NCBI GenBank assembly: GCA_043806535.1
Contig: JAZDGV010000100.1
Coordinates: 1-31,869 of the forward strand
Reading direction: 5' to 3'
DNA length: 31,869 nucleotides
Source: Candidatus Aenigmatarchaeota archaeon
GTDB taxonomy: Archaea > Aenigmatarchaeota > Aenigmatarchaeia > JACPZZ01
This document shows, piece by piece, positions 13,242 through 29,761 of the stretch. The position numbers and the translations under genes were made by a program. The notes beneath the pieces are model-generated. The model was not told the DNA's origin. It made no database searches and was given only the letters and a program-made list of their open reading frames with translations. Every line of letters begins with the position of its first letter. Within the stretch, counting starts at the first letter, position 1.

Positions 13242-13450
13242 GGGCCCGTAGCATAACCTGGATAATGCGGCGGCTTCCTAAGCCGACGATTGTGGGTTCA
13301 AACTACCCCTTTCGGCGCAAACTGAAACACAGGCGAAAACAGAAGCAGACAAATGTCTGCTTCAGTCTGACACTGTGTTTCGAGCTGTAACGAAAGCGGT
13401 AAGGTATCGGAAAGAAACTACGATAGGGTATGAAATTCCCACCGGGCCCG
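13242..13450 (+). tRNA. tRNA-Arg(CCT) with a 134-nt intron in the T-loop (59/60)
   Basis: Exons 13242-13302 and 13437-13450; acceptor stem GGGCCCG/CGGGCCC; A20; anticodon CCT at 13277-13279; strict BHB at the junctions. Confidence 0.92.
13303..13436 (+). other. BHB tRNA intron (59/60): family A element with a nested family B hairpin
   Basis: BHB formed by GGG/CCC, bulge AT|T, central TTCA/TGAA, bulge AA|C and TACCC/GGGTA. Family B stem at 13342-13363. Confidence 0.88.
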
Positions 13451-13511
13451 CCTTCTAACCAAGTTCGGAAAGAAAATATATACGGAAAATAAACGATTAT
13501 ATGTGGAATCG

Positions 13512-16500
13512 ATGAAAAGGACTTTGGCTGCGGTATTTCTAGCGCTCATTGCGATGGCTGTCTCTGCGACGAGCTTGGGATGGAGCGCAACAAAGGAGTT
13601 TAACGTAACCAACGCTCTCTATGTCAATTGGACCAACGCAGACGGCATGGGTCTGTATGCGATAAACATATCGATAGGGAACAATGCGACATACGACATT
13701 GTCGTGAACATAACAAACTCGACCAAGCTGATAAACAATTCGTTCTCGATAACAGCCAATTTCTCTGTGAGAAATGTGACCGGTTGGTCCGAGCAGGTTT
13801 CCGTGCCCGGCATGGGAACGCAGAACGTGTCGCTGATTTTCAACTATACCGGCCTGAGAGCCGGAAGATACGTGGGAACGTTTATAATCGCCAATGCATC
13901 AACCGCAAGCGAATACGCCAGTGTGAATGTCACGCTTGACATCTCGCTGACACTGAACGAAACAACGATGGACTATGAGAGCTTCTTTGGCAGACTTTCA
14001 TCGCCCGACCCGTATGAAAGATATTTCTTCAACGCGAGCTCCGGCGACTCGATAAACATACAAATCAGCACAACGCCGTTGTACCTTTTCCTTTTCGACC
14101 AGTCCGGCATCGTTGATATGAACGTTTCAAACACCACTCAATACCAGAACAGGTCGATTTCTTTCCTTACGCGCGGATACAACCAGTATTATGAACTCAG
14201 GGTCTACAACGCCTCAATTAGGGATTTCAACGGCTTCATCCGGCTCGGAACATTGAACACAAGCAGAAGATTCCTGGATTTTGGCTCTGTCAACACGACA
14301 TCTGCGACAGGACATTCAAATACGACCACCTACGATTTGAACAACACAAAACCGATAAACTTGGAAATGGTGAGAGAGTCCTGGCAGATGTATCTCAACA
14401 AGAGATATACGAACTTGGTAAACGCTTCCAATTTCACGGTTCTCGTTTCCAAAAATTACCAGAAGCTCGAGGCTGTGGTGGAATGGAGAAACGCGACAGC
14501 CGATTTCAACATGACCATATACAACTCCTCGTTCCAGCCGATCTCAGGCTATGCCAAAAGAAACCTGAGCAACGTTCCCGGCGTTGCGAAATCCCATGTG
14601 GTGGTTGAAAAGCAGTTCGACGAGTTCAACAAGACATGGATTGTGTCTGTTGTTGGAACGCACGGCGTTGAATACAACGTCACGATAAAATCGTTCATCG
14701 ATGCAAGCTGGATAAACAGCAGCTTCGGGAATTATCTGGGATACTATGTCATAAACGAGACGCAGAATTCATCGACTGTAAGCCTTAATATGACGCCTCC
14801 CGCGTGGCTCATCGACGGGCTTTACAACGGCTCTATCTCTTATGGTTATTCTGAGGCGAAGACGGAAATTCCATTCGGCATAAATGTCACAGGACCGATG
14901 CTCGTCGTCAACAACACGCTCGACATACTCAATTTCGCTGTCACGGACAATCTCGGCGCCAACAAGACAGTCAATTTCGGTTTCTTGATAAACAACACAG
15001 GCAGCTATGATTTGTATCTCGGCGATTACAACACGACGTCGTTGAACTTCTCCGACCATTCGATATGGTTCAACTACTCCTTCCAGAATCCCGTGCCTGC
15101 AGGCTCGTCCTCAATGCTTAATGTGCGATTCAACCTGACAACGCTGTCTTTCAACTCGGATGAAAGCGTTTACCTTGGATGGATTCTGCTCAACTCGACA
15201 AACGCGCATCCTTACAACGCGTTTAGAATAAACATGACATTCAACCTCACAAACAAGCTGAACTTCTTTGTTTACAACGTCTCGAACTACACTGGCAGCA
15301 ATTGGATAAGGCTGCAAAGCACGACGAACAACTCTTACATCAATGTCACCGTAAACATCACTTTCCAGAACGGGAGCTTTGTGCCAAACTTGAACCCGTC
15401 GAACTTCAGCGTATGGATGCAGAACACATTCGTGTATGAAGGCTCCAATTACACCTACAACGTCACTGATATGAATGTTACAGCTGTCCATACCAACGCA
15501 GGAGTTTACAAGTACTACGTGCTCAATGTGTCTGTCCCCTCAAGCGCGTTCGGGGGGAATTTCACAGTCTACGCCAGCGCAAGGGATGCGCCGGGCGGAT
15601 TTGCGAATTACGGGGCAGACAAATTCAGCTACTTGTATGTCAACAAGAGCCTGATGACCATAGACCTGACAAACGGGACCAGCGACGCGCCGACATTCTA
15701 TGCGACAGGGGATTATGACGTCAATATGACTGTTTTCAACCAAGGCGCGGAGCCTGCAACTGATGTCAACGTTTCAGGTGCCGCGTCCGGCTCGTGCTCC
15801 ATAAAGACTGGATACATGGAAGGGTTTTACATAGGAAACATCAGCTCATACTCAAGCTATTCCAACAGCACCATATGGAAACTGAGCATAGTCGGGAATG
15901 GGACTTGCACATTCGCGGTTGTTGGAAATTCGCCTCGCGGCGCTTGGCTGCTGAACGACACCATTGATTTCGGGTATGTTGGAGGATACCCTGCTCCTCC
16001 ATCAGGCTCGTCATCAGGAACGGGCGGGTCGGGCGAGAGCGCAATGAAACTGGAAATATTCACGAACAAAGCCAGCTACCTTAGATTTGAGGCGGCCGTG
16101 ATAACGTTCAACATCACTTCGACAGGAGCCGCTGTAAGCGGCGCCACGATAAGCTACAATATCACCGACTCGTCGGACAACAACCTCGTGTCAAGCGCAT
16201 GCTTGACAGGTTCGGACGGAAAATGCGTTGTCACGCACAACTTGACATCGGCTACGACCGGGGAATACAGAGTCGTCGCGAGAGCGTCCAAGACAGGCTT
16301 TTCCTCCTACTCTGCGACGAAAAGCTTCAGATTTTTCATGACCTCGGCTCAGATAACCTATTACAGCAGCTATGTCTCAGTTCTGCAGGGCTCAAAAAAC
16401 ACAACGGAAGTCAATGTAAAAAACAACGGCTCATTGCCAGTCGTTTTGAGACTGAAAATAACAAATATAACGGAAAGCTGGATTAAAACAACGCCGAGCC

Positions 16501-17177
16501 AGATTACAGTCGCGCAGGATGTGACAAGCACTTTCATTGTCGAGATTACCGCTCCTCTGAATGCCACGATAGGGAAGTATTATGCAATAATAGGCGTTCA
16601 GAACGATTCCTATTTCGACACGAGAAGCGCGCTTGTATTGGTTTTCCCGACAGATGCGACCAAGGAGCAAATATCCAGGTTTATTGCGGACTATTTGAGC
16701 GTCCTAAATTCGGTGTCCGAAAGGTTGAATTCGTCGAAGCTGCTGTTCCAGAACAATTCGAACATAATCACAGCCGAAAGCATGGCTAACACCGCCTTCC
16801 TTGAATATAGGGAAGCCGTCTCGGCGCTTGCGAGCGGCAATTACATAAAGGCTAACGAAAAAATCACAGAGGCGAAGAGGCTCGCGGACTTGGCGCAATC
16901 GCTTATCGCACAGACGGAAAAGGCAGGCGAGAAATTTTCCTTCGACCTGGTTTTGATTGTTGGAGCGATAATCGTGCTTGTTGGAGGCGTTGGGGCGTTG
17001 GCGTACATGCTCATGCCGCCCCCCGGCTATTCGCCCAGCGCCGGTTATGTCCATGCTGTGCAGAACGCAGACGCATTCGCAAAAATCAAGGACGAAATAT
17101 CCAAACTGATCGGAAAGGTGCTTGAATTCTTCAAAAAAATCACAACAAAGAAGCAAGAGGACTATGTCAGATGGTAA
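13512..17177 (+). CDS. Large surface glycoprotein (S-layer/adhesin candidate)
   Basis: Signal peptide, roughly 75 N-x-S/T sequons by manual count, Pro/Gly/Ser linker, helical region and a C-terminal TM helix. Start taken at ATG 13512. Confidence 0.8.
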   Translation: MKRTLAAVFLALIAMAVSATSLGWSATKEFNVTNALYVNWTNADGMGLYAINISIGNNATYDIVVNITNSTKLINNSFSITANFSVRNVTGWSEQVSVPGMGTQNVSLIFNYTGLRAGRYVGTFIIANASTASEYASVNVTLDISLTLNETTMDYESFFGRLSSPDPYERYFFNASSGDSINIQISTTPLYLFLFDQSGIVDMNVSNTTQYQNRSISFLTRGYNQYYELRVYNASIRDFNGFIRLGTLNTSRRFLDFGSVNTTSATGHSNTTTYDLNNTKPINLEMVRESWQMYLNKRYTNLVNASNFTVLVSKNYQKLEAVVEWRNATADFNMTIYNSSFQPISGYAKRNLSNVPGVAKSHVVVEKQFDEFNKTWIVSVVGTHGVEYNVTIKSFIDASWINSSFGNYLGYYVINETQNSSTVSLNMTPPAWLIDGLYNGSISYGYSEAKTEIPFGINVTGPMLVVNNTLDILNFAVTDNLGANKTVNFGFLINNTGSYDLYLGDYNTTSLNFSDHSIWFNYSFQNPVPAGSSSMLNVRFNLTTLSFNSDESVYLGWILLNSTNAHPYNAFRINMTFNLTNKLNFFVYNVSNYTGSNWIRLQSTTNNSYINVTVNITFQNGSFVPNLNPSNFSVWMQNTFVYEGSNYTYNVTDMNVTAVHTNAGVYKYYVLNVSVPSSAFGGNFTVYASARDAPGGFANYGADKFSYLYVNKSLMTIDLTNGTSDAPTFYATGDYDVNMTVFNQGAEPATDVNVSGAASGSCSIKTGYMEGFYIGNISSYSSYSNSTIWKLSIVGNGTCTFAVVGNSPRGAWLLNDTIDFGYVGGYPAPPSGSSSGTGGSGESAMKLEIFTNKASYLRFEAAVITFNITSTGAAVSGATISYNITDSSDNNLVSSACLTGSDGKCVVTHNLTSATTGEYRVVARASKTGFSSYSATKSFRFFMTSAQITYYSSYVSVLQGSKNTTEVNVKNNGSLPVVLRLKITNITESWIKTTPSQITVAQDVTSTFIVEITAPLNATIGKYYAIIGVQNDSYFDTRSALVLVFPTDATKEQISRFIADYLSVLNSVSERLNSSKLLFQNNSNIITAESMANTAFLEYREAVSALASGNYIKANEKITEAKRLADLAQSLIAQTEKAGEKFSFDLVLIVGAIIVLVGGVGALAYMLMPPPGYSPSAGYVHAVQNADAFAKIKDEISKLIGKVLEFFKKITTKKQEDYVRW

Positions 17178-17230
17178 TTTCTGCGAGGTTTAAATGCCTG
17201 CGCAACGAATGATTAAATTCTCGTGAATTT

Positions 17231-17602
17231 TTGTTTTTGGCGGTCAAAATGGCAAAATACATCTACAACAATTCGATAAAGGAGAAGGCGAAGGCGCTCT
17301 TTTTCGGGCATCGGATTCATGAAAAAATCGGCAGCAGGATAAAGCGCATTCCGGTTGAACGCATCGATATGAAAACCCCTGTCAGCGAAGTAAAAAAACA
17401 GCTGGCGACGTTCGTTTCAACCGCATTCGCGCTGACAGCGGCATTCTTCTGGAACGACGCGATAAGGGCGATGATAACTTCTTTTATACCGTACCAAGCC
17501 GGGAATTGGCCTTATTTGATGTGGTCTGCCGTGATTGTCACTCTGATTGCGGTGGTTGTCACAGCGCTGATTGCCAAAGTGCTTGGCGGGGCAGAGAAAT
17601 AA
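17231..17602 (+). CDS. Small membrane protein, DUF5654-like
   Basis: AFALTAAFFWNDAI and YLMWSAVIVTLIAV helices; the true start may be downstream (17249 or later). Confidence 0.7.
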   Translation: MFLAVKMAKYIYNNSIKEKAKALFFGHRIHEKIGSRIKRIPVERIDMKTPVSEVKKQLATFVSTAFALTAAFFWNDAIRAMITSFIPYQAGNWPYLMWSAVIVTLIAVVVTALIAKVLGGAEK

Positions 17603-17607
17603 TCCTG

Positions 17608-19464
17608 TCACATTCTCTCTATCGGCTGCACGCCAATGAGTTCAAGCGCATTCTTTAGCACGTCCGCGAAGCGGGCGACCAGTCGAAGCCTGAACGCGCG
17701 CGCGTTTTTTTCCGCGTTGAGAACCGGGCAGAACTGGTAGAATTTGTTGAAATTCGCGCAGATTTGATAGGCGTACTTGCACATCTCCTGCGGCGACAAG
17801 GTTTCCGCGGATTTCTTGACAACTATCGGGAAATAGAACAAACTTTTCAAAAGCTGCTTCTCAACGTCCGTGACGTTTTCAAAATCCGCTTTGCCGGGCG
17901 GACCTTTTGATTTTTCGAGTATTCTCCTCGCCCGCGCATATGCGTACTGCAAATATGAAGCCGTATTGCCATCGAGCCTGAGGGAATCGTCTATGTCAAA
18001 GACTATGATCTTGTCCCTGTCTATTTTTGTGAGTTCGTAACGGAGCGTCGATGCCGCTATTGATCCGGATGTCTTTCTCAGCCAAGCGTCGTTCTCTGTT
18101 GGGTTTCTTTTCTTTGTCTCGTCGTAAGCTTTCTCCGAAATCTTCTCAATGACCGTATCTACGTTGACAAAGAGCCCTTTGCGGCCGGACATGTGTATTA
18201 TTTCGGAATCTATAGGGACTCCAAGCGATTCCGCGGTCTTCTTGCTGAGCGAAACAACCTCGTAATCGTAGTGCGTGTAATTTTTCTCCCCGGAAATCAT
18301 CTTCAACGCGGTCGCAACAACGTCCTGCTCATAAGACTGCCTGACGTCGACAACGTTTATCGACATGTCCGCGTTTCCGAAGGGCTGGGACGGCTTTGCT
18401 TTCTTTTTATTGGAAGTTCTCCAGAGAATCTTCTTGTTCGGTTGCGTGACAAACTTTTCATAGTAAAAATCTTTCATCAAGCCGTGCTTCCACATCGCGT
18501 ATGCTATGTCCTTTCCCGCATACAAAACGGTCCCGTCCGACCTCACAAGAGCCTTATCGGGGTTTTCCATTCCCTTGAACTCGTCCAGATCGGAGAGCTT
18601 CAGCATCCAACAACCGGCATTCTTCCCGGCGCCAAGATAAACAAGGTTCTTTTTTTTCAGCTTCTCAAATGACTTTTCCCAGAGTTTCGACCTTAGTATG
18701 CAAGTCTCGGTTGTCAGCACGTCAAAGAATATTCCCAGACGCCAGAGCGTCTCAAGCTGGGCGGATAAGACTTTGTCAACGATTTTTTCGCTGAATTCCG
18801 ACAATTCGTTGCCGCCCTTCTCTATGGATTTTATCACCTCAAGCCTCTTGCCTTTCAGCTCCGGATTTTTTTCGTACACCCTGTTGACAGAAACGTAGAC
18901 GTCGTCGCCGCAGTACTGGTCGAACTTTTTCTCCGTTTTTATCGGATAACCCAAGGACTTGAAGCCGACGATTATATCCGCCACCTGCGTCCCGCTGTCG
19001 TCTATATAGTTCAAAACCTGGACGCCATGGCCGACAAACTTGAGAATCCTTGCGATTGAGTCTCCGAGGCATGAGTTTCTCGCGTGCCCTATGTGTATCG
19101 CCTTGTTCGGGTTTATGCTGGTGTGCTCCACGAGGATTTTTTTCTTCTTTGTCCGGTATTTGCCATATTCTTGCTTTTGCTTTTCCATCTCGTCCAAGAC
19201 CGCTTTGGCGAATTTTTGCGGGTTGAGAAAGAAGTTCAAATAACCCGACTTTGCTTCGACGCGCTCTATAATCGAGTTTTCCGGTATTTTTGTTCCTGCG
19301 GCAATCTCTTCCGCCATCTTCTGCGGGCTTTGTTTCTGGCGCTTCGCAAGGTCAAAGCATATCGTGGACGCCAAGTCCCCAAAGCCCGGTTTCGGAATCT
19401 CTATGGTCTCTTCCAATCCCTCCAAGCCGACAAGTTTGCTTATTTCCGAGTACAGGGAAATCAT
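17608..19464 (-). CDS. argS: Arginine--tRNA ligase
   Basis: GFGDLAS, EHTSINPNKAIHIGHARN (HIGH), MSGRKG, GNTASYLQYAYAR motifs. Start reassigned to ATG 19464. Confidence 0.97.
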   Translation of the reverse strand: MISLYSEISKLVGLEGLEETIEIPKPGFGDLASTICFDLAKRQKQSPQKMAEEIAAGTKIPENSIIERVEAKSGYLNFFLNPQKFAKAVLDEMEKQKQEYGKYRTKKKKILVEHTSINPNKAIHIGHARNSCLGDSIARILKFVGHGVQVLNYIDDSGTQVADIIVGFKSLGYPIKTEKKFDQYCGDDVYVSVNRVYEKNPELKGKRLEVIKSIEKGGNELSEFSEKIVDKVLSAQLETLWRLGIFFDVLTTETCILRSKLWEKSFEKLKKKNLVYLGAGKNAGCWMLKLSDLDEFKGMENPDKALVRSDGTVLYAGKDIAYAMWKHGLMKDFYYEKFVTQPNKKILWRTSNKKKAKPSQPFGNADMSINVVDVRQSYEQDVVATALKMISGEKNYTHYDYEVVSLSKKTAESLGVPIDSEIIHMSGRKGLFVNVDTVIEKISEKAYDETKKRNPTENDAWLRKTSGSIAASTLRYELTKIDRDKIIVFDIDDSLRLDGNTASYLQYAYARARRILEKSKGPPGKADFENVTDVEKQLLKSLFYFPIVVKKSAETLSPQEMCKYAYQICANFNKFYQFCPVLNAEKNARAFRLRLVARFADVLKNALELIGVQPIERM

Positions 19465-19551
19465 GGCATCACAAAGACATAATCCTCGGGCGGATATAAA
19501 AATTCGGGAAGCGCTTGGCAACCGCAGAAATCGTGCGCCCTATGGGCGTTT

Positions 19552-19983
19552 TTAGGTCTTTTGGAACTTCATTGCTCGCTGGACGACATGCTGCTCGGCT
19601 TCCTTTATGCCGAACGCCTTGGACAAGTAGTCTACGGCATCGCTCACATTGAACTGCTTGCAGGAAAATACGTCTATGGCGACAAACCCCTTCTCTGGAT
19701 AGGTGTGGACGGATATATGAGATTCTGCAATCATCACAAAACCTGAGATTCCCCAGTCCTCTGGCTTCAATCCGATGTATGGAATCACATAAGGCGTGAT
19801 TATCTTTGTCATCCCTATTATTCCGGGGAGCTCGTCGAGAACTTTGAACACGCGCATCATGTCAGAGAGCTTTTCCTTGTCGCATTGGTACCCGTCAATA
19901 GTGAGATGCGGGCCATAACCTGCCAATTTTTCCGGCTTCTGCTCTGATTCCAGGCTTCTACCAAAAGAAATTTTTTGTTGCAT
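19552..19983 (-). CDS. speD: Pyruvoyl-dependent S-adenosylmethionine decarboxylase proenzyme
   Basis: GPHLTIDGY, GISGFVMIAE|SHISVHTYPE (self-cleavage site) and DVFSCK motifs. Confidence 0.9.
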   Translation of the reverse strand: MQQKISFGRSLESEQKPEKLAGYGPHLTIDGYQCDKEKLSDMMRVFKVLDELPGIIGMTKIITPYVIPYIGLKPEDWGISGFVMIAESHISVHTYPEKGFVAIDVFSCKQFNVSDAVDYLSKAFGIKEAEQHVVQRAMKFQKT

Positions 19984-20091
19984 TTATTTTTCACTGATAA
20001 TATTATTTTGTGCGTTATTCTTTTAAATATTTATCCCTTGCCGAATTTTTTGCAAAAAGATTTCAAAAAAATTCTTTCCGAGAAATATTTT

Positions 20092-21042
20092 TTATTTCCT
20101 GATGAAGTCGACGAGCGTGCACGCTTTGCATTTTTTCGACGAACTCGGCTCGCCGCAGCTCTCGCAGGCCAGAATTTCACTCTCTTCAACGTTTTTTCCG
20201 GCGGCTGCGTGACTCAAAATCGAATCAAATGCCTCCACCAAGCCGAATTTTATCCCCGGGTGGTTCGTTTCGAGGGTGTTGAGAAAGTCTCTGACCTCAA
20301 AACGCATCCCCGACGCATACGGGCACTCTCCCCAGTAGTTGTTTATGCCGCCGAGCATCGCGTAAAGCGCTATTTCTTTCTCCGGAATCAGCCTGAGCGG
20401 CTTTATTCTCTGAACAAAACCGGTTTTCTGTTGTTTCCGGCTTGGAATCTGCGAATTTGACCTGAAAAGCTTGTTTGTGTCGCCCTTGAGGCAGTTTATC
20501 AGGAAAGTCTGAGCCTCATCGTCGAGGTTGTGGCCTGTGCACACTTTTGTTGCGCCAAGCTCTCTCGCAGATTTGTTTAGCGCATACCTCCTGAACACTC
20601 CGCACCATGTGCAGGCGCCGCCAAGCCCGCTCTTGAGAGGCGTTCGCCCGAGTTTCCTGATTATTCCGTCCAAACTCATCCCGAAGACGCGCTTGAAGCT
20701 TACGACGTGATGCTCCACGCCAAGCGACTTTGCCAGCGCTTTGGCATTTTCCAAGCTTCTGTTCCTATAGCCTTTGATTCCTTCGTCTATGGTTAGCGCA
20801 AATATCCTGACATCCTTCCTCTTGGAGAATGTTTTTGCCATCAAATAGAGCGCCGTGGAAGAGTCCTTGCCGCCGCTCAGCGCAACCGCTATGGCGTCGC
20901 CGGGAGCAACGAGGTTGCCCTGTCGAATGTGTTTCTTGACTTTTTTCTCGAACTGGTCGCAAAAACACGCCTTGCAGTAGAAATTTCCCTCGTTTCTGCG
21001 GTAATAGACGGCTTCTTTGCCGCACGAGCACTTCATTTTCAT
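20092..21042 (-). CDS. ttuA: tRNA 2-thiolation protein, TtuA/NcsA/Ctu1 family
   Basis: PP-loop SGGKDS, CTWCG, GHNLDD, ECPY, and N- and C-terminal zinc fingers. Confidence 0.9.
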   Translation of the reverse strand: MKMKCSCGKEAVYYRRNEGNFYCKACFCDQFEKKVKKHIRQGNLVAPGDAIAVALSGGKDSSTALYLMAKTFSKRKDVRIFALTIDEGIKGYRNRSLENAKALAKSLGVEHHVVSFKRVFGMSLDGIIRKLGRTPLKSGLGGACTWCGVFRRYALNKSARELGATKVCTGHNLDDEAQTFLINCLKGDTNKLFRSNSQIPSRKQQKTGFVQRIKPLRLIPEKEIALYAMLGGINNYWGECPYASGMRFEVRDFLNTLETNHPGIKFGLVEAFDSILSHAAAGKNVEESEILACESCGEPSSSKKCKACTLVDFIRK

Positions 21043-21236: not shown

Positions 21237-21292
21237 AGCATCACTATATCTTTGAACAAATAATTTAAAATCAGCGTAGACATTGCATAGTT

Positions 21293-21364
21293 GCAACTAG
21301 AAACAGACTATCGGTCTGTTTCAGCTGCGTGCCAACAGACGCATACCCATGGTATGCGTCAGCT
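21293..21364 (+). repeat. REP-like family B element followed by a second 10-bp hairpin
   Basis: GCAACTA-GAAACAGAC-tatcg-GTCTGTTTC, then GACGCATACC-cat-GGTATGCGTC (21338-21360). Confidence 0.7.
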
Positions 21365-21385
21365 GACGAGTTCACACGTATGAAC

Positions 21386-21522
21386 GCCGGGATCGCATAA
21401 CCAGGTAGTGCGCCAGTCTCGAATAAGCCTTTCTTTTGAAAAAGAAAGCCTTAATGGAAAGAAAACCTGCGAGAGAACTGGTGTGGCTCTGCCACTTATG
21501 GGTTCAAATCCCATTCCCGGCG
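21386..21522 (+). tRNA. tRNA-Ser(CGA) with a 52-nt intron at 37/38 (21424-21475)
   Basis: Acceptor stem GCCGGGA/TCCCGGC, G73, long variable arm, anticodon stem CCAGT/ACTGG, BHB central helix CTCG/CGAG. Confidence 0.93.
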
Positions 21523-21523
21523 C

Positions 21524-22294
21524 TTACCACATCTTCTTCAGAATCTCCTTTGACGTCTTTGCGAAAGCCCGTCCGGGGAAGAAGATTTCGAAGGTTATCG
21601 TGTCATCGTACCCGATTTCTTTAATTTCTTTGGCAACGGCTTTGAAATCTATCTTTCCAAACCCGATTCCGAGATGCTCGTCCCTCATTCCCCCGTTGTC
21701 GTGGAAGTGCAAGTGACGAATCTTCTTGCCGAAAGTCTTGATATACCTCTTAACTTCTCCCATACCACCTTGTATGAAAGCGTGCCCGACGTCAAAGTTG
21801 ACAGCAACTTCTGTGTTCTTCACGACATATTTGAACTCTTCCAAAGAATTGTTTGGCGTGTTTTCAAGAACCAGAAGCACACCCTTTGAGTGGGCTTGGA
21901 GCGTTTTTATGCTGTCTATATAATTGTGCAGTGCCTGGTCCCTGGATTTCTTGTTGTTTGCAGCCACGCCCCTGATTTCAAGGTGAACTGTGAGTTTTTT
22001 CGCGCCAATCTCGCTTGCGATGTCTATTACCGCTTTAATCTGGTTTATCCACCTCCTTCTTACCAGCTGGTTCAAACTCCCCAGCTCTGCCCACCACGGC
22101 GCATGACCAAGTGAGAACATGTTGTATTTTTTGAGCGATTTCAGTATGGCCGATTTGTTCTTTCTGAGAAGTTCGGGCGTTCCCATAGGCTCTTCGATCG
22201 CTATTTCGGCGTAGTCGAACCCCATCTTTGCGACAGTCCGTATTTCCTTCACGATGTCGGCTGACGGGTTCGTTATGTTACCGAATTTCGGCAT
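21524..22294 (-). CDS. Sugar phosphate isomerase/epimerase (AP endonuclease 2 TIM-barrel family)
   Basis: GFDYAE, LVLEN, NFDVGHA, HLHFHDN..DEHL and ITFE metal-binding motifs. Confidence 0.85.
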   Translation of the reverse strand: MPKFGNITNPSADIVKEIRTVAKMGFDYAEIAIEEPMGTPELLRKNKSAILKSLKKYNMFSLGHAPWWAELGSLNQLVRRRWINQIKAVIDIASEIGAKKLTVHLEIRGVAANNKKSRDQALHNYIDSIKTLQAHSKGVLLVLENTPNNSLEEFKYVVKNTEVAVNFDVGHAFIQGGMGEVKRYIKTFGKKIRHLHFHDNGGMRDEHLGIGFGKIDFKAVAKEIKEIGYDDTITFEIFFPGRAFAKTSKEILKKMW

Positions 22295-22359
22295 AAGATG
22301 AGTTTATGAAATTATGGTTATTAATGACTGATGCCAAAACACAATATTATGGCTAAGAG

Positions 22360-22482
22360 GGGCCCATGGTCTAGTGGCTAGGACGCCACCCTCACAATAA
22401 GCCTTTCTTTTGAAAGAAAGGTTAATCGAAAGAAAATAGTATGGGAACGGTGGAGATTCCGGTTCGATTCCGGGTGGGCCCA
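22360..22482 (+). tRNA. tRNA-Val(CAC) with a 51-nt intron at 37/38 (22397-22447)
   Basis: Acceptor stem GGGCCCA/TGGGCCC, A73, anticodon stem CCACC/GGTGG, BHB central helix CTCA/TGGG with bulges CA|A and AA|C. Confidence 0.92.
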
Positions 22483-22484
22483 AG

Positions 22485-22533
22485 CTACCCTTTTCTTTGG
22501 TAAAGAAAAGAGGTAAGGTATCGGAAAAGAAAC
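22485..22533 (+). repeat. tRNA-3'-flanking hairpin element, family A
   Basis: CTACCCTTTTCTTTGGTAAAGAAAAGAGGTAAGGTATCGGAAAAGAAAC; 47/50 positions match the copy at 29712-29761. Confidence 0.85.
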
Positions 22534-22572
22534 AAACGAAAGGAAAGGTTAGTTGCTAAGGAGGTGCCGATT

Positions 22573-22595
22573 GAAGCACATCGAAGATGTGCTTC
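22573..22595 (+). repeat. REP-like family B variant hairpin
   Basis: GAAGCACATC-gaa-GATGTGCTTC followed by GGT; same outer arm as the other family B copies. Confidence 0.6.
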
Positions 22596-22616
22596 GGTTT
22601 GCGCTTTCCTCGCAAT

Positions 22617-22689
22617 GGGCCTGTCGTCTAGCGGTTAGGACGTCACGCTTACACCGTGAAGGTCGCCAGTTCGAATCTGGCCGGGCCCA
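22617..22689 (+). tRNA. tRNA-Val(TAC), intronless
   Basis: 73-nt cloverleaf: GGGCCTG/CGGGCCC, loop CT-TAC-AC, T-arm GCCAG-TTCGAAT-CTGGC. Confidence 0.96.
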
Positions 22690-22691
22690 TG

Positions 22692-22741
22692 CTCCCCTTT
22701 TCTTTAAAAAAGAAAAGTGGTAAGCTATCCCAAAAGAAAAC
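22692..22741 (+). repeat. tRNA-3'-flanking hairpin element, family A (diverged copy)
   Basis: CTCCCCTTTTCTTTAAAAAAGAAAAGTGGTAAGCTATCCCAAAAGAAAAC, starting 2 nt after tRNA-Val(TAC). Confidence 0.8.
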
Positions 22742-22788
22742 GTAGGAAGGGTTAGCTACTAAGGGAAACCAAAGGTTTCCCTCGTAGA

Positions 22789-22899
22789 GGGCTGGTAGAT
22801 CAACGGTAGATCGCCACATTGGCAACAACCCTTTTAAAAAAAGGGTTGATCGAAAAACCACGCTTGTGGAGGCTTCGGGTTCGAATCCCGACCAGTCCA
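22789..22899 (+). tRNA. tRNA-Ala(GGC) with a 39-nt intron at 37/38 (22825-22863)
   Basis: G3:U70 wobble in the acceptor stem, A73, anticodon stem CCACA/TGTGG, relaxed BHB (TTGG/CCAC). Confidence 0.9.
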
Positions 22900-22995
22900 A
22901 TGCCCGATGAAGAAAACCTGTAATGGGCGGACTGAGGGCAACAACCACTTGGATATTAATTTTTAATTAAGCCAACAAAGTATAATTGTGGGCAT

Positions 22996-24144
22996 ATGAA
23001 AGGTGTTGCGGATTTCCTCATTGTTCTGGTCGCAGCTGTGCTGTTCCTAGGGGTTCTCTTCCTGGTGACAGAGGTGAGATTAGGCGACTGGGGGTCCAAA
23101 ACGGGTGTCGCGCGATCAGATGTCGTGAGTTTCGGCCAGGTCTATCTCGGTTTCACTTCCAGCGACATTGCGAGGAGTGTCTATTTTGATGACATGGTTG
23201 TGGGGCAGCAATCATTGAAGAGCCTCAAAAATGCGATAGAACTTGAAATCTCCAAGGGGATGTTCTCGGACGCGAGGCAGGAAATAAGCATCGAAATTCC
23301 GCAGGAGACGCTGTCCGATGCAGTGGGCGGAAAGATAATCTTCGACGTTTCCAACACAAACCAGTACGGTGAGCTTGTAATCGTTTTCAACGGGAAGGAG
23401 CTGTTCAATAAAAACGTGCCAACCGGACGCTATGAAATATCGATACCTAAGAACTCGATGAAGACGGAGAACATCCTGATTGTCTATGCGACAGGACCCG
23501 GCGCAAAATTCTGGGCATCGACCGTATATGTGCTGAGGGATTTCAGCTTCAACGCGGTGATAGAATCCAAGCAGGCACTTTTCTTCAATGTTTTTTCCGA
23601 GGAGATTGACATCTGGAACACGGGGGTTATGAATTTCCAAGTCGCCAAGGCGTCAAGCGAGAATTCAAAGCTCATTGCCAGCATCAATGGAAAGGAAATC
23701 TATAACAAGTTTCCAACTGCGACCCAGCTTGAACTCGGCGTGAGAGACATAAGGCCCGGGACAAACGTGCTGACATTCAAATCCGAGAACGGCTACTTCA
23801 ACCTCCAAAACCTTTACTTGAACGTGATTCTCTGGAAAAACAAGACTCTTGGCGTCTCGAAATCGTTCGTGCTCAGCGAGTCGCAGTATGGCGAATTCAA
23901 CCGAACCGATATGAGGGGCGTTGTTCAGATAACCATCAACAGAATCGTGAAACCTTCCGCGCTTGAAATAAAATTCAAGGCGAACAGCGAAAAATCTGTT
24001 TTCATCACAAACCTGAAGGAGAGGGAAGCGATAAACGCTACTTTCGATTACACGTACCTCCGCCCAGGAAACAATATTGTGACTTTGTCCACGGACGGGG
24101 CGATTGACGTTTCAAGCGCTGATTTGTGGTTTGAGAGAGCTTAG
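22996..24144 (+). CDS. N-terminally anchored beta-rich hypothetical surface protein, possible class III signal peptide
   Basis: MKG|VADFLIVL... hydrophobic N-terminus followed by a beta-strand-rich body. Confidence 0.7.
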   Translation: MKGVADFLIVLVAAVLFLGVLFLVTEVRLGDWGSKTGVARSDVVSFGQVYLGFTSSDIARSVYFDDMVVGQQSLKSLKNAIELEISKGMFSDARQEISIEIPQETLSDAVGGKIIFDVSNTNQYGELVIVFNGKELFNKNVPTGRYEISIPKNSMKTENILIVYATGPGAKFWASTVYVLRDFSFNAVIESKQALFFNVFSEEIDIWNTGVMNFQVAKASSENSKLIASINGKEIYNKFPTATQLELGVRDIRPGTNVLTFKSENGYFNLQNLYLNVILWKNKTLGVSKSFVLSESQYGEFNRTDMRGVVQITINRIVKPSALEIKFKANSEKSVFITNLKEREAINATFDYTYLRPGNNIVTLSTDGAIDVSSADLWFERA

Positions 24145-24165
24145 CGGCTTTTGGATGATTTTGCT

Positions 24166-25569
24166 ATGTCATGGCGCGAGAGATTCAAGGAATATGCGAA
24201 AGCAAGGGCGGAAAGTTTCAAGGGAAAATATCAGGGAGGAGACGATACAGGTTCCGTGAAGACAATCGTATACACCTTGATAATTTTCCTGCTTCTCGTT
24301 GCCATTTCCGTGCTTGACTTCATTTTTTTCGGCGTACCGCCGATGAGCATCACAGGATGGGCGTTAATCGCTTTGTTCACGTGCACTTTCCTTTATCTCG
24401 TGTCCAGGCCGCCGACGAGCTTTGGGGCGTTTATAACTTGGACCGTTTCCCTTGCGTTTTTCTTTATTGTGTTGCCGTGGTTAGCGCTGGTAAGCCCGTT
24501 GTCTCCGCAAATCAAGAATTATTACAACATCGCGATAGAAGGGTTTTCCGTGGTTGGGACGTTCTTTGAAGGAATCGGAGATATGATAGCGAGAAGCAAC
24601 GCGTGCTTCAGGGATGCAACATCGCCGGAATGCACGTCTGCGACAACCTTGCCGATGATTGTAAAAACTCTTGGGATAGAAATCGGTGCAATAGAAACGC
24701 AAATCGCCATCGCCGATCGCGATACAATGATTGTGATTCCCTTGCAGAACAAGGGCGAGCGAGACGGACTTCTAAGGGGCATACTTGTTTACGGCAATGC
24801 GAGCAAGGACTGCAAAGGAGGCGATTGCGTGCAGAAAATCACGAAGATAGAATGTCAGGATTGCTCGAACCAAATAACCATCTTCGATGGTGTTGGGGTG
24901 TTCAACGACCCTGGCGAGAAAGTCATTCCTAGGGATTCCAGACAGATTGTAGCGACGTTCAAAGCCCCGTGCAACAAAAACCAGAGAACCTATCCGTTCA
25001 ATGTGTCATTGGAATACGCATATTCCATTGACGCATCCCTGGCAGTCGATGTCATGAACAAAAACGAATATGAATCCAAACTGCGCGTTGGCGAGTTCAG
25101 GCAGGCGGTGCAAATGACGTCCACTGGAGGACCCGTATACGCTTCAATAACTTTTGGGAGCAGCGGCTTGCAACCGATAAAATCAAATACTAGCATGATG
25201 GTTTCAATAAGGTTTACAAACAACCAAAAGGGAAGGTTCAAGCTGGATTCGGCTACGATCAATCTTCCCAACCAGGACTCAGGCGCGATTGTTTGCACGC
25301 TGCTCGACGGCAAAGAAGTGACGCTGCCGATTATTGCCGGCGACGACAGATGGTACAAGGACAGCGACATGATAATACAGTGCCCTGTCCAAATACCGAA
25401 AGTCGAAGAGCAGACAAAGAGGTATGTTGCGACTATATCAGCCAAGTATTATTACCAAGTGTCGAAATCCGGCGAGGTGCTGATAGATACGGCGTCCATA
25501 CAGGAAAAGTGCGGCACAACGACAAGCAGCACGACCACGACAACCGTCACAACAACTACGACAACATGA
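24166..25569 (+). CDS. Membrane protein with extracellular YxY...GP-family domain and Thr-rich tail
   Basis: Three N-terminal TM segments; LEYAY...TSTGGPV...AKYYY motifs shared with the 26405 and 27337 proteins. Start reassigned to ATG 24166. Confidence 0.75.
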   Translation: MSWRERFKEYAKARAESFKGKYQGGDDTGSVKTIVYTLIIFLLLVAISVLDFIFFGVPPMSITGWALIALFTCTFLYLVSRPPTSFGAFITWTVSLAFFFIVLPWLALVSPLSPQIKNYYNIAIEGFSVVGTFFEGIGDMIARSNACFRDATSPECTSATTLPMIVKTLGIEIGAIETQIAIADRDTMIVIPLQNKGERDGLLRGILVYGNASKDCKGGDCVQKITKIECQDCSNQITIFDGVGVFNDPGEKVIPRDSRQIVATFKAPCNKNQRTYPFNVSLEYAYSIDASLAVDVMNKNEYESKLRVGEFRQAVQMTSTGGPVYASITFGSSGLQPIKSNTSMMVSIRFTNNQKGRFKLDSATINLPNQDSGAIVCTLLDGKEVTLPIIAGDDRWYKDSDMIIQCPVQIPKVEEQTKRYVATISAKYYYQVSKSGEVLIDTASIQEKCGTTTSSTTTTTVTTTTTT

Positions 25570-25578
25570 TTGTTTTGG

Positions 25579-26367
25579 CTACACCATCGCCGCTATTCCC
25601 ATCGTGTTTCTTATCCCTGGCGCAAGACCGAGTATCAGAACCAATATTTTCCACCAGTTCCTGTAATTTCTGTCCTTGATGTCCCTGTCAAAAAAATACA
25701 GCACAGGAACCACGATTGCAAGTTTGAGTGGGAACATTATCCAAGGCCCGAACAGTGGTATCAGCGCCCCTGCGACAACATGCTCTTCAACAAAACCGAG
25801 GTACTTGCCGACAAACGTTGAGGACGCGTCCAGCATGTGCACAGAAATTATCATAATGTTTTGTTTGGTCAGCAACTGTGGTGCGGTTTTTGAAACAGTC
25901 GTTAGCGCAACATACCATGCGATTGATATTAAAATTATTTCCGCCAGCGCCGTGGCGTTGGTTGTCATTGATATCAGCAGAAGATAGACCGGGGCGCACA
26001 ACAAAACACCTGTCGCCAGCATGATTTTCCAGTATTTTATTTTGAATCTTCGCTGTGCGGCGATTGACAGCAACAAAGCCGAGAACGCTATCGTGAAAGT
26101 CACAAAATATGAGCCGGGCGTGATGAAAATGTCGCTTTTCAACACTTCCGCATCGCGCAGGACTCGCAAGCCTGCGCCTAAGGCTATGAACGGAAGCAGG
26201 GCGCATGCGAAATTGCGATCAATCTTGATTTTGAGCCTCTTCAAGACTTCGAAAACAAGATACGCGGACGCGACCAGAATGAGCCCGTATGCCAGCGTGT
26301 TAACAATGTTGTATTTTCCAGTCTCGTATACGACCGGATTGATGAAATATTCTTCAAGTAAACCCAT
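25579..26367 (-). CDS. DUF63-family archaeal membrane protein
   Basis: YNIVNTLAYG, LRVLRDA, FITPG, HMLDASST and LGLAPGIRN motifs; multi-pass. Confidence 0.85.
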   Translation of the reverse strand: MGLLEEYFINPVVYETGKYNIVNTLAYGLILVASAYLVFEVLKRLKIKIDRNFACALLPFIALGAGLRVLRDAEVLKSDIFITPGSYFVTFTIAFSALLLSIAAQRRFKIKYWKIMLATGVLLCAPVYLLLISMTTNATALAEIILISIAWYVALTTVSKTAPQLLTKQNIMIISVHMLDASSTFVGKYLGFVEEHVVAGALIPLFGPWIMFPLKLAIVVPVLYFFDRDIKDRNYRNWWKILVLILGLAPGIRNTMGIAAMV

Positions 26368-26404
26368 TAAATCACTTTTTAACTATTGGATCCAAAATAT
26401 AATT

Positions 26405-27289
26405 ATGAATGACGTCAAGGCTGTTCTTGCCATAATGCTTGTTTTGACGGCGTCCGGATGCACGCAAAGCGATGGAAGCGACAATAATCCGCTCGCAAAC
26501 GACGTCATAATTCTTGAAAGCCTGGAAATCGCTCCGAGCGAAGCTGGCGCTGGCAGGATAGTGACGATAACGGGGTATGTCACCAACAGCGGAAAACAGA
26601 GCGCAGACAATGTCAAAGTAAAACTCGAAGATTACTGTTCCAGCCTTTTCTCGATAGAGAGAAAAACGTGCGACACCGCGTCCGGGAACGATACGTGCGA
26701 TTACGGAACAATGAAGCCGGGCGACTCGAAGAAAATCGGATGGAGGCTCAAAACGCCTAGCGCGGACAAAATCGCTAACCTCGAATTCACCTGCCCGATC
26801 AAAATAAAGGCATATTACTCTTACGTCTCGTCGGGCTCTGCGGATGTCGTTCTGGCGCAGGAGAACGAGAAAGCGCCTGCTCCAACGAGCGCCACGAGCG
26901 ACGGTCCTGTAAAAATATACATCGAAGTCAAAGGACAACCAATCACGCCTAACGTCCCGTATGACGTGGCTGTCACGATAAAGGACGAAGGCGTTGGAAA
27001 AGTGTCAAGCCGATCAATACCAAAGGAAAACTTGGATTTGAATATACCAGCAGAGATTTCCAAAGACCCTGTGTCCGTGTTTGAGACGTGCAACATAACA
27101 AGGGATATTATAATGTCAGAAAAGACGGGTGAGAAGAAAGCCGATACCATATACTGCACGCTTACATCCCCAAGCTTCAGGGACATTGTTTTGACAAAAC
27201 ACGTGACGGCTTCGCTGAAATACGACTATGAATTCGACAACAGCGCAAACCCGCTCACGGTTGTCGTAAAACCTGTCGCAACCGTTTGA
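26405..27289 (+). CDS. Lipoprotein of the YxY...GP paralog family
   Basis: Lipobox LTASG|C; motifs AYYSY, TSDGPV and LKYDY. Start reassigned to ATG 26405 (ORF track start 26021 overlaps the DUF63 gene). Confidence 0.8.
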   Translation: MNDVKAVLAIMLVLTASGCTQSDGSDNNPLANDVIILESLEIAPSEAGAGRIVTITGYVTNSGKQSADNVKVKLEDYCSSLFSIERKTCDTASGNDTCDYGTMKPGDSKKIGWRLKTPSADKIANLEFTCPIKIKAYYSYVSSGSADVVLAQENEKAPAPTSATSDGPVKIYIEVKGQPITPNVPYDVAVTIKDEGVGKVSSRSIPKENLDLNIPAEISKDPVSVFETCNITRDIIMSEKTGEKKADTIYCTLTSPSFRDIVLTKHVTASLKYDYEFDNSANPLTVVVKPVATV

Positions 27290-27336
27290 CAAGCAGAAAC
27301 CAAAGTTATATAATTAAGCGGACAAATTGTGATTAT

Positions 27337-28302
27337 ATGCCAACAAGAAACAGTTTGGTTGCTTTGTTTGGAATCCTTCTCGTGCTAGCCGCGTCCGGGT
27401 GCACTGGACTCATCAGCGGACTCGGCGGCGGAACGACTACTTCCGCAGGAGGCTCTGTGACAATCACCAGTTTTACATCAGATGAGACAAATATCGAAGG
27501 CAACCAGAAAATCGCTCTCACCATGGAAATAAAGAACCAAGGCGACTCGACAGCGAGAAGCGTCAAGGCGCAACTTACCACGCTCGATTTGGCCTGTGCG
27601 CAGGCGTCGTGCGCTGCGACCGACACCCAATGGGGGCTTCTCAACGGGCAGAGAGACGCGGTGATATCGGATTTGAAAGTCGTGGCGGTTGGAGAAGAAG
27701 CGGTTCCAAGAACATATACGTGGAGGGTACAGGCGCCAAAGTTGCCTGCCAACATGGTGCAAACTTATGATGCGCTTGCAAGGGTTTCATACTCATACTC
27801 GACAGAGACTTCAAGGCTCATCAGGATAGTTTCAAAAGATGAATACGACAGTCTCAAACAAGCAGGGCAATTGCCGCCTGTCCATACAACCGTGACTTCC
27901 AACGGACCCATCGGAATCGATGTCACTGTCAAGGAGCCGATAAAAATCGAGGATGCCATGGAGAGTTTCATGCTGTCCATCACGCTGAAAAACCTTGCGG
28001 GCGGAACTGTTTACGCTGACAACATAGACGCCAGCAGCGACAGGAACAAGATGTGGGTAAAGCTGTTCTTGACGCCTGGAATTGGGCTTCTTGGCTCCGG
28101 AGACGCGGAATGCAACAGGCTGGTAAGCGATGCGAAAGGTCTTTTGGCAGAATTGAATAAAGGCACGTTCACGATACAATGCGAGTTTTCCAGCAACAGG
28201 CCGATAGCGTCGATTGATAAGGAAATCCGAATAAAGGCGCAATACGGATATTTCAGCGATTCCACAGTAAAGATAACCGTGACCGGGAAAACAAGATACT
28301 AA
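27337..28302 (+). CDS. Lipoprotein of the YxY...GP paralog family
   Basis: Lipobox LAASG|C; motifs VSYSY, TSNGPI and AQYGY. Start reassigned to ATG 27337. Confidence 0.8.
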   Translation: MPTRNSLVALFGILLVLAASGCTGLISGLGGGTTTSAGGSVTITSFTSDETNIEGNQKIALTMEIKNQGDSTARSVKAQLTTLDLACAQASCAATDTQWGLLNGQRDAVISDLKVVAVGEEAVPRTYTWRVQAPKLPANMVQTYDALARVSYSYSTETSRLIRIVSKDEYDSLKQAGQLPPVHTTVTSNGPIGIDVTVKEPIKIEDAMESFMLSITLKNLAGGTVYADNIDASSDRNKMWVKLFLTPGIGLLGSGDAECNRLVSDAKGLLAELNKGTFTIQCEFSSNRPIASIDKEIRIKAQYGYFSDSTVKITVTGKTRY

Positions 28303-29588
28303 TTTTTCTTCAGGAAGTCTTCCAAGCCGCGCTGCGCTATCCTTGATTTTTTTATTTCAACGTTGTCGCCGTTGAACAGCGGAATGCCGTAAACGCCGTC
28401 ATAACCTGGAATGTATTTCACTCCGCTTTCCCTGACCTTGATTATCGCTTCTGCAATTTTCTCCGTTGTCACTGTTTTCAGTTCCTCGGCGCCCGCATTC
28501 AAAAGAACATTTAACTCTGGCCCGAATTTTGCAACAATCTTGTCGTGCTCTGCCATGACTTTTTGCGAATAAAGCTGGCTTATTCCCAGCACGTGCGATA
28601 TTATTTCATAAAGCGGGAGCAAAGTCTTGAACGGTATCGCGTTCTTTGGGACAAATCCTTCTCTTCTGTCGGCCAGCTGCTCAACTCGATTAAGAACGCC
28701 TATCGTGAGCGGCCTTCTGCACTTCGGGCATATCTCATTCAATTTTTTTGATTCATCCGGCGTTAATGATACGTTGCAATCACGGTGCCCGTCATAATGA
28801 TATTTCCCATAGTTTGGGTCTGTCTCTATCGTATAAAGAAATTTTCTTTTGTCCTTTGTTTTTATCGCGTCAACCATCTCCGCGTAAGAGATTTTTTCCA
28901 AGTCGAAAACGTTGGCTTCTCGTCCGAGCCGCCACGACCATGGCGAGTGGGCGTCGGAATTTGAAATCAACGCGACGTTGTCCAACTGCGACAGCCGCCA
29001 GTTCATCGCCGGATCGGATGAGAGTCCTGTTTCAATCGCGAATATATTTTTCGTTTGGTCCTCGAAACATTCCTGCAGGCCGTCAAATCCTGACTTTGAC
29101 CCGAACACCGAGAACCACGGCGTCCAGGCGTGCGCAGGAATTACCATGACGTCTTTGGATATTTTTGTCATCATTTCCATGAACGCGGCGCACGTAATCT
29201 TCCCGAAAATAGGACGGCCGTCCGCTGAAAGGTTTCCGCGCTTCCCAAGTTCGTCGTTGATTTGTTCAACAATCTCAAAACTCGGAGCGAGAATGATGTT
29301 GTGTACTTTTCTTACTTTCTCGCCGTCGGAATAAATCAGCGCTATCTCGGCCGAAAGAGCGAACAGAACGTCCTGCGAATTTTTTGTCGTAAAGAACCCG
29401 CTTTGGTCCTTTTCGGACAAATCTTTTTTCAGTTCGTTGAAATGCAGCGGATGAGTGAAGTCGCCTGTGCCCAAAAGATTCAGACCTTTGATTGCGGCGA
29501 ACCTTTCCAAATCGTGTATGTTCATCTGCGGCGACGTGGCTCTGCTGTATTTCGAATGCAAGTGAAGATCTGCGATGATTTGCATCAT
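28299..29588 (-). CDS. Endonuclease Q family (PHP-domain) DNA repair nuclease
   Basis: ADLHLHSKYSRATS, GTGDFTHP, PAHAWTPWFS, NSDAHS, GKYHYDGHRDC...CPKC and PGYDGVYG motifs. Start reassigned to 29588. Confidence 0.88.
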   Translation of the reverse strand: MMQIIADLHLHSKYSRATSPQMNIHDLERFAAIKGLNLLGTGDFTHPLHFNELKKDLSEKDQSGFFTTKNSQDVLFALSAEIALIYSDGEKVRKVHNIILAPSFEIVEQINDELGKRGNLSADGRPIFGKITCAAFMEMMTKISKDVMVIPAHAWTPWFSVFGSKSGFDGLQECFEDQTKNIFAIETGLSSDPAMNWRLSQLDNVALISNSDAHSPWSWRLGREANVFDLEKISYAEMVDAIKTKDKRKFLYTIETDPNYGKYHYDGHRDCNVSLTPDESKKLNEICPKCRRPLTIGVLNRVEQLADRREGFVPKNAIPFKTLLPLYEIISHVLGISQLYSQKVMAEHDKIVAKFGPELNVLLNAGAEELKTVTTEKIAEAIIKVRESGVKYIPGYDGVYGIPLFNGDNVEIKKSRIAQRGLEDFLKKN

Positions 29589-29711
29589 GAAACACCTTGT
29601 ATTTGGTTTGTTTCTGCATGACAAGAATGCTTTCTGTGATACAGATTCCACATTCTTGTCATAAACAATAAATTGCACTGGAAAATTAATAAATGGGTCT
29701 TTTGTCTATGT

Positions 29712-29761
29712 GTTTCTTTTCCGATAACTTACCGCTTTTCTTTACCAAAGAAAAGGGGTAG
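29712..29761 (-). repeat. tRNA-3'-flanking hairpin element, family A
   Basis: Minus strand reads CTACCCCTTTTCTTTGGTAAAGAAAAGCGGTAAGTTATCGGAAAAGAAAC, starting 1 nt after the tRNA-Ile discriminator base. Confidence 0.85.

Follow-up and report, generated by a model that had tools for sequence, protein, structure and literature searches.

Triplex-type repeats and transposed tRNA introns

Repeats capable of intrastrand triplex formation (potential intrastrand triplex, PIT) have been described in bacteria, with BoxC/TMECO of Escherichia coli as an example; these are G/C-rich, contain short loops, and show no link to tRNA (Holder et al., 2015; PMC4666352). In Thermoproteales, transposed tRNA introns bounded by bulge-helix-bulge (BHB) motifs have been reported (Fujishima et al., 2010, as presented in PMC4090602 and 10.64898/2026.10.13.758758). 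The mechanism of tRNA intron transposition was called still unknown in a review (PMC4090602), and a 2026 preprint on the tRNA genes of Asgard archaea, in which copying, mobile elements, and reverse transcription were tested, identified no arrival route (10.64898/2026.10.13.758758). Here, a short non-coding repeat, referred to below as the element, is described from a stretch of 31,869 nucleotides (the window) that constitutes contig JAZDGV010000100.1 (C100) of a Candidatus Aenigmatarchaeota metagenome-assembled genome (MAG; assembly GCA_043806535.1, denoted G000; 564 kb in 110 contigs, 66% complete, GC 48%). A pattern search of 60 relatives turned up the element sequence in a second genome, G014 (GenBank prefix CAYPFW01), which belongs to the same class and to another family (1.1 Mb in 7 contigs, GC 36%, 96% complete). 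No published description of the element, or of free tRNA-intron-like copies, was found in a full-text literature search.

The repeat is interpreted as a family of small non-coding insertion elements with a triplex-type architecture that populates one DPANN clade, with a probability of roughly two in three. The element occurs often at tRNA genes without being specific to them. It offers a concrete candidate route by which introns could enter archaeal tRNA genes, in that one recognizable element has been seen in every state such a route needs—that is, free in intergenic sequence, freshly inserted beside a tRNA, and as T-loop, D-loop, and 37/38 introns—and the occurrence of these states in different tRNAs and genomes makes the question of intron gain testable. 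The window contributes a population-level gain at a tRNA 3′ end and a recurrent site just past the discriminator base; the wider analysis contributes two pairs of filled and empty sites with long duplications and a clade-wide count with a clean control.

As far as the accounts of the Thermoproteales introns cited above extend, both systems comprise near-identical short introns in different tRNAs, mostly at non-canonical positions, with the BHB limiting where a copy can persist. Those accounts, to the same extent, describe no copies outside tRNA genes, whereas for the element such copies form the majority and are possible donors. The element further differs from the introns so described in its DPANN lineage and in having a defined, conserved architecture.

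The mirror-repeat architecture

The element is approximately 45–65 nt long and consists of a variable closing stem, an 8–10-bp pyrimidine/purine hairpin, a linker, and a purine tail. The pyrimidine arm follows the pattern C-T(b)-C-T(a) and is connected by a 2–4-nt loop to the complementary purine arm, and the tail, located past the 3′ half of the closing stem and the linker, reads A(b)-G-A(a). The purine arm is thus mirrored in the tail, which is also the parallel complement of the pyrimidine arm. In copy 1 of the window (22485–22534, plus strand; 75.7 bits with covariance model R1), these parts are represented by the 5′ arm CTACCC, a 9-bp pyrimidine/purine hairpin, the 3′ arm GGTAAG, the linker, and the mirror purine tail. 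An initial annotation, made from the window alone, had read the structure as a hairpin with a tail; this reading stands, but the mirror repeat in the tail, the defining structural feature, had been overlooked. A 22-nt tail pattern has exactly three matches in the window (22512 and 22719 on the plus strand, 29733 on the minus strand) and none in 100 shuffles.

The mirror arrangement was tested on 183 readings of the hairpin, taken from G000, G014, and a further 61 loci; in 127 of them, a purine tract follows within 28 nt downstream. Mirror run lengths were exact in 107 of these 127 tails, as compared with 2 that form a direct repeat; when the tails were shuffled among hairpins in 5000 trials, a mean of 15.7 and a maximum of 31 matches were obtained. 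Single linker classes contain two to four run-length variants, all obeying the mirror rule, and the three tracts have therefore repeatedly changed together. To our knowledge, no polymerase-based copying yields mirror repeats, and selection on a three-strand interaction would be the simplest reading of the rule. Judging from this coordinated tract variation, one strand can probably fold as an intrastrand triplex; the geometry would suit either strand, with the purine motif on the sense strand and the U.A-U/C+.G-C motif on the antisense strand. Ordinary folding prediction returned the hairpin alone, with the tail left free. Comparative evidence that a natural repeat is under a three-strand constraint is unusually clean in this element.

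RNA triple helices of the element for nuclear expression (ENE) type, as in MALAT1, PAN, and transposon transcripts, have the order Hoogsteen U-tract, Watson–Crick U-tract, and 3′ A-rich tract, and contain a U-rich internal loop. The antisense strand of the present element has an ENE-like tract order, but in a simple hairpin, and the two are likened by description only.

The PIT class offers a closer comparison. The element shares with BoxC/TMECO (PMC4666352) the succession of pyrimidine arm, short loop, purine arm, second loop, and second purine arm of equal length (about 9 nt), and both are multi-copy, extragenic, strongly variable in copy number between relatives, and tied to genome rearrangement. 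The blocks of pyrimidine, purine, and mirrored purine that characterize the class (stems of 6–15 nt) are present in the element, at 8–10 nt each. The first loop, at 2–4 nt, is short as in that class, but the second spacer, counted with the 3′ arm of the closing stem, is longer (6–16 nt) and often has its own small stem; in the ITxF definition, loops are 1–6 nt, and in TMECO the second loop is 3 nt. In addition, unlike BoxC/TMECO, the element is A/T-rich and archaeal, occurs in tRNA introns and at tRNA ends, has filled and empty sites as well as target duplications, and shows extensive three-way covariation.

Since the tracts are low in complexity and rich in A/T, and the window derives from a fragmented MAG in which two populations are mixed, a chance similarity or an assembly artefact was also considered. 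Such an origin is barely credible given the lack of matches in the shuffles and of control matches in 371 genomes, the presence of the element in independent assemblies and in unitigs, and the ratio of 107 mirror tails to 2 direct ones.

Insertion into DNA, mobilization, and distribution

The tRNA-Ile(UAU) gene of the window (29763–29892, minus strand), which contains a D-loop intron and a 37/38 intron, is host to copy 3 of the element, a 64-nt insert (29698–29761, minus strand) that starts 1 nt after the discriminator and is flanked by the direct repeat CCCAT at 29766–29762 and 29697–29693. Contig C110 of the same MAG, which represents a sister population, is homeologous to C100 (89–94% identical) and carries a tRNA-Ile gene that is 98.5% identical and has no insert; its 3′ flank continues directly with the T-rich sequence found beyond the insert in C100, with the difference between the two contigs at this site amounting to 69 nt bounded by CCCAT. 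Likewise, the orthologous tRNA-Ile(UAU) genes of four genomes of the same family (G001, G004, G005, and G006) have only a T run past the discriminator. Unitigs from two independent groundwater metagenome runs, examined as low-share Logan contigs, bridge the flank, the element, and tRNA-Ile, and the junction is therefore not an assembly chimera. The flank copy at tRNA-Ile is a recent gain. Strain-level presence/absence at orthologous tRNAs, as envisaged in the initial annotation, was thus found at tRNA-Ile, and the two outcomes that it had set against mobility, namely copies at the same tRNAs in all relatives and assembly chimerism around the repeats, are contradicted by the empty tRNA-Ile sites and the spanning unitigs.

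With respect to the assembly itself, G000 contains two related populations whose contigs pair at 86–95% identity (C64/C65, C24/C107, C93/C106, C100/C110, and others), and many of its contig ends share overlaps of exactly 141 nt, which is the assembly k-mer.

Further filled and empty sites were found in protein-coding genes of G014. A copy at C4:38516–38578 lies at about codon 12 of a sufS-like gene and is accompanied by a 14-nt duplication and a new in-frame ATG, whereas the orthologues in G307, G308, and G309 are uninterrupted and keep the stop/start junction and the ancestral N-terminus. At C1:503260, a copy is accompanied by a duplication of 19 nt spanning the start codon, which has become ATT in the upstream copy, and the orthologous site in G308 is a plain promoter without the element. 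Among 65 copies, direct repeats of at least 8 nt flank 9, as compared with 1.5 expected from shuffled pairing, an approximately six-fold enrichment; the left repeat always abuts the 5′ arm of the element, while the insert terminates on the 3′ side in variable, A/T-rich sequence. The target duplications measure 5, 9, 10, 14, 18, or 19 nt, or are absent. These data show that the element inserts into DNA with a 5′ end given by its 5′ arm and a variable, A/T-rich 3′ end.

A separate arrangement was observed at C1:31340–31470 of G014, where an element copy, together with about 25 A/T-rich nucleotides, lies between duplicated 18-nt stretches of a tRNA 5′ end (TGCTGATGTAGCTCAGTG); an intact tRNA is found downstream, and an orphan 5′ tRNA fragment upstream.

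Recent copies carry target duplications of variable length (5–19 nt), and in the proposed mechanism copies would persist only where they are harmless. Harmless sites would include the spaces between genes and gene starts at which the duplication regenerates a start codon. Directly past a tRNA discriminator, RNase Z would remove the copy as a trailer, and inside tRNA genes copies would be kept only at loop positions that form a BHB, from which the splicing endonuclease would remove them.

Several observations weigh against the interpretation as an insertion element. The ends of the element (CTACCCC... and ...ATACAAA) form no terminal inverted repeats, the duplication has no fixed length, and most copies have none. 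The core tracts are near-identical across many families, which is no less compatible with a host function than with a selfish element, and the clustering 0–3 nt past the discriminator is not accounted for by selection alone. An A-rich purine-motif triplex is expected to be weak, especially in RNA, although the antisense U.A-U form would be stable. Finally, no mobilizing enzyme was found in G000 or G014: neither a Y1/HUH transposase (PF01797) nor TnpB scored above the cut-off in G000 (66% complete) or G014 (96%), other transposase families not having been searched.

In comparison with miniature inverted-repeat transposable elements (MITEs) and with small repeats of the type formed by repetitive extragenic palindromes and their associated tyrosine transposases (REP/RAYT), the element is likewise short, non-coding, structured, multi-copy, and mostly intergenic, and shows presence/absence polymorphism. 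Unlike MITEs, it has neither terminal inverted repeats nor a fixed-length duplication, and no parent transposon was found in the Y1_Tnp and TnpB searches. Unlike REP/RAYT and IS200-IS605-type elements, it is accompanied by no RAYT/Y1 gene found in G000 or G014 and shows no replication-strand bias, with plus and minus copies interspersed along a 600-kb contig of G014. Duplications of 5–19 nt are unlike those of a classical DDE transposase, and are compatible with staggered-nick or retroposition-like insertion.

The resemblance of variable duplications and A/T-rich 3′ ends to retroposition would also suit a life cycle at the RNA level, in which excised intron or trailer RNA returns to tRNA transcripts through reverse splicing or ligation, after which a reverse transcriptase (RT) copies it back into DNA. 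The tRNA-linked sites are indeed the loops and the 3′ end of a folded RNA, the copies there are mostly sense, and G014 encodes an RT. This 356-aa RT, the only one found in G014, belongs to a diversity-generating retroelement (DGR) at C1:596258–599273, whose template repeat is located near 597.8 kb and whose variable repeat forms part of the 3′ end of a neighbouring 302-aa gene; in view of this template/variable repeat pair and its adenine-specific mismatches, it was rejected as the mobilizer of the element. Since no RT was found in G000, most copies lie outside tRNAs in either orientation to transcription, and antisense copies occur in tRNA introns (L151; contig C23 of G000), an RNA-level cycle is judged distinctly unlikely. 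The initial annotation had proposed a reservoir-and-intron cycle and a screen for co-occurring RT, HUH, or integrase genes. Both of the proposed states exist, but the filled/empty pairs and target duplications indicate insertion at the DNA level and lend no support to an RNA cycle; the screen yielded nothing linked to the element, the sole RT being that of the DGR.

The distribution of the element is clade-patchy. The exact core (run lengths 4 and 3) was found in 91 of the 371 genomes of the phylum sample, usually 1–10 times each, whereas a control pattern consisting of the core read backwards gave no match in the 371 genomes. The core is present in 6 of 7 genomes of family f1, 34 of 44 of f3, 5 of 5 of f8, and 5 of 6 of f38, and in none of the 70, 23, 21, and 19 genomes of f18, f9, f15, and f23, respectively. 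Sub-family 1 is held by 14 of 151 genomes of the class, linker sub-families are common to several families, and the copies of G000 and G014, despite GC contents of 48% and 36%, have a mean column identity of 82%. G014 contains 43 copies by nhmmer, about 55 by covariance model at E < 0.01, and 54 by exact architecture match.

Consistent presence within some families would also be expected of a conserved host cis-element, such as a bidirectional terminator or insulator, a processing signal, or a protein-binding site, that is vertically inherited and duplicated with tRNA clusters. T-rich tracts occur on both strands directly past tRNAs and stop codons, and the two spacers of the Val-Val-Ala tRNA cluster in the window are homologous along their full length, both in line with such a function. 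However, relatives contain anywhere from 0 to more than 50 copies, the five relatives that lack the element at the orthologous tRNA-Ile have a plain T run there instead, and copies with target duplications lie inside coding 5′ ends at sites that are empty in other genomes. Sense copies also occur inside tRNA genes, where a terminator would be lethal. In G014, no orientation bias relative to protein genes was detected (19 copies co-directional and 13 antisense to the flanking genes in tandem spacers, with 10 copies in divergent spacers), and the proportions of copies in convergent, divergent, and tandem spacers are similar to the background, with no clear enrichment in convergent ones. The element thus differs from an intrinsic terminator in having no fixed orientation at gene 3′ ends as well as in its sense copies within tRNA genes, and a host cis-element as the general explanation is considered unlikely. 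Individual copies, nevertheless, may have been exapted as host cis-elements.

Outside archaeal genomes, matches in bacteria of the genome collection were dismissed as single chance matches, and a pattern search of IMG/VR viral contigs gave no contig carrying the true element, its three matches all lacking the hairpin and being attributed to chance. A contig binned as Pelagibacterales (L098/L170, GC 27–30%) contains a look-alike of the 3′ half of the element, with 34.9 bits for model R1 and a poor pyrimidine arm; this is either a chance match or a mis-binned contig.

Copies beside and within tRNA genes

In the window, element copies also follow two tRNA-Val genes on the plus strand: copy 1 starts 2 nt after the discriminator of tRNA-Val(CAC) (22360–22482), and copy 2 (22692–22741, plus strand; 76 bits with the covariance model) starts 2 nt after that of tRNA-Val(UAC) (22617–22689). 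Together with copy 3, these bear out the claim of the initial annotation that an element of about 50 nt lies 1–2 nt past the discriminators of three tRNAs, at 22485, 22692, and 29761 (minus strand). The reported match at 47 of 50 positions between two copies on opposite strands was likewise reproduced for 22485 and 29761, with the differences being one C indel and two substitutions.

Furthermore, the post-discriminator site recurs beyond the window (L101/L160, L122 of G138, L131 of G047, L167/L181, L171, L183, and C1:107582 of G014); it was met in at least 8 genomes, and at least 10 copies start 0–3 nt after a discriminator. A true preference of the element for tRNA genes is likely because of these copies. 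In G014, approximately 12–15 copies are tRNA-linked and the remainder (about 80%) occupy gene ends or the short stretches separating protein genes, two of them inside the 5′ end of a protein gene; the first four copies found adjoin no tRNA. Yet tRNA genes make up well under 1% of this genome, and about one-fifth of the copies touch them. The notion of a tRNA-targeting system in the initial annotation accordingly holds in that the element is frequent at tRNAs and returns to the same site past the discriminator, but not as a specificity for tRNA genes. Its distinction between an intronic and a 3′-flanking state was upheld, and both states recur in other genomes.

T-loop intron copies were identified in G014 at C1:331450, C1:373020, C1:167609, and C2:189152, and D-loop intron copies at C2:188982, C2:48838, and C1:415560; further examples occur in G063, G068, G078, G138, and G018 and on metagenome contigs (T loop at L135, L136, L141, L142, and L161; D loop at L134, L138, and L163). 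In these further introns, the 5′ arm of the element lies 0–3 nt from the 5′ splice site. The tRNA-linked copies are mostly, but not always, in the sense orientation: a 37/38 intron of L151 contains an antisense copy, and a tRNA-Glu intron on contig C23 of G000 contains one sense and one antisense copy head to head.

The tRNA-Arg(CCU) gene of the window (13242–13450, plus strand) contains a T-loop (59/60) intron at 13303–13436, for which the BHB junctions were examined in detail. As the initial annotation had recognized, the element forms parts at both ends of this intron: its first 10 nt open the intron (13303–13312) and its 3′ 28 nt are found at 13391–13418, with about 75 nt nested in place of its hairpin loop. 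An 18-nt 3′ extension (13419–13436), which free copies do not have, follows the tail and completes a strict BHB. The hBHBh′ motif as read from the sequence consists of the 5-bp T stem, bulge AUU, a 4-bp helix UUCA:UGAA, bulge AAC, and a 5-bp helix UACCC:GGGUA; the inner helix uses the element's own 5′ arm, the partner strands being supplied by the extension. Both cuts are predicted after the second bulge nucleotide, which gives the 59/60 intron, and the exons (13242–13302 and 13437–13450) join to a full cloverleaf with the T-loop UUCAAAU. No orthologue of this tRNA-Arg(CCU) was found in genomes of the same family by BLAST with a 61-nt query, and the tRNA of G014 that carries the same T-loop insert is of another kind, with anticodon UGU.

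The 37/38 introns of tRNA-Ser(CGA) (around 21400–21500, plus strand), tRNA-Val(CAC), and tRNA-Ala(GGC) (22789–22899, plus strand) follow the plan of the element, with a pyrimidine/purine hairpin, ATC-type linker, and purine tail, in agreement with the layout ascribed to them in the initial annotation. The Val(CAC) intron (22398–22448) belongs to a related sub-family with a hairpin, a TTAATC linker, and a mirror tail, which is dispersed over about 10 further contigs of G000; the Ser(CGA) intron (21424–21475, end approximate) is homologous to it. The Ala(GGC) intron (22826–22864) has a near-identical twin in tRNA-Gly(GCC) on contig C22 of G000.

Intronic copies are presumably excised as tRNA introns by EndA, for which two genes were found in G014 and one in G000 (contig C68, beside a tRNA and an element copy that has diverged). 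Because G014 has RNase Z, flank copies would be removable as ordinary trailers, and a loss of RNase Z as the cause of the flank copies was rejected for the same reason.

The recurrence of the intron and flank states, together with the recent gain at tRNA-Ile, makes the element a plausible donor for intron gain, and the direct route suggested in the initial annotation is supported to this extent. A more far-reaching proposal is that the family is the missing donor of non-canonical archaeal tRNA introns—that is, an element without its own transposase, recognized through its triple-stranded fold, that prefers tRNA genes and other gene boundaries, leaves long variable duplications, and becomes an intron at once where its 5′ arm completes a BHB. 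This proposal is put forward tentatively, as the less probable outcome.

Intron content was also compared among the tRNA-Ile(UAU) orthologues L188 (G005), L190 (G004), L191 (G001), and L196 (G006), whose intron sets are unlike that of G000. The D-loop intron is missing from all four, their 37/38 intron is longer and encloses variable palindromes, and a further insert precedes the T arm; a T-loop intron is present as well in G001 and G004. Within a single family, then, the intron complement turns over. The anticodon UAU of the tRNA-Ile in the window (29815–29821) is unusual among archaea, most of which read AUA via an agmatidine-modified CAU.

In an Rfam search of the window and related loci, tRNA was the sole matching family, and the tRNA model spans the inserts of the Val, Ala, Ile, and L151 tRNAs (positions 1–71 matched). 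For the whole G014 genome, the same model returned just 20 tRNAs at E < 0.01 despite 96% completeness, which suggests that many of its tRNA genes are too interrupted for detection. The element would thereby explain why many tRNAs of these genomes escape standard tRNA finders.

A second family of repeats adjoins tRNA genes, on the 5′ or the 3′ side, with its GCGC end always facing the tRNA. It reads GCGCATAC..TG..ATGTCAGCTGAC, with a CAGCTG or CAGTCTG palindrome, and was observed in G000 in the tRNA 5′ leaders on C32, C68, and C110 and in the tRNA 3′ trailers on C106, C10, and C22. The sole EndA gene found in G000 (C68:1083–2099) lies about 550 nt downstream of a tRNA trailer containing both repeat families. 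Palindromes related to the second family are nested in introns, among them the tRNA-Arg intron (window positions 13330–13380) and the 37/38 intron of the relatives' tRNA-Ile.

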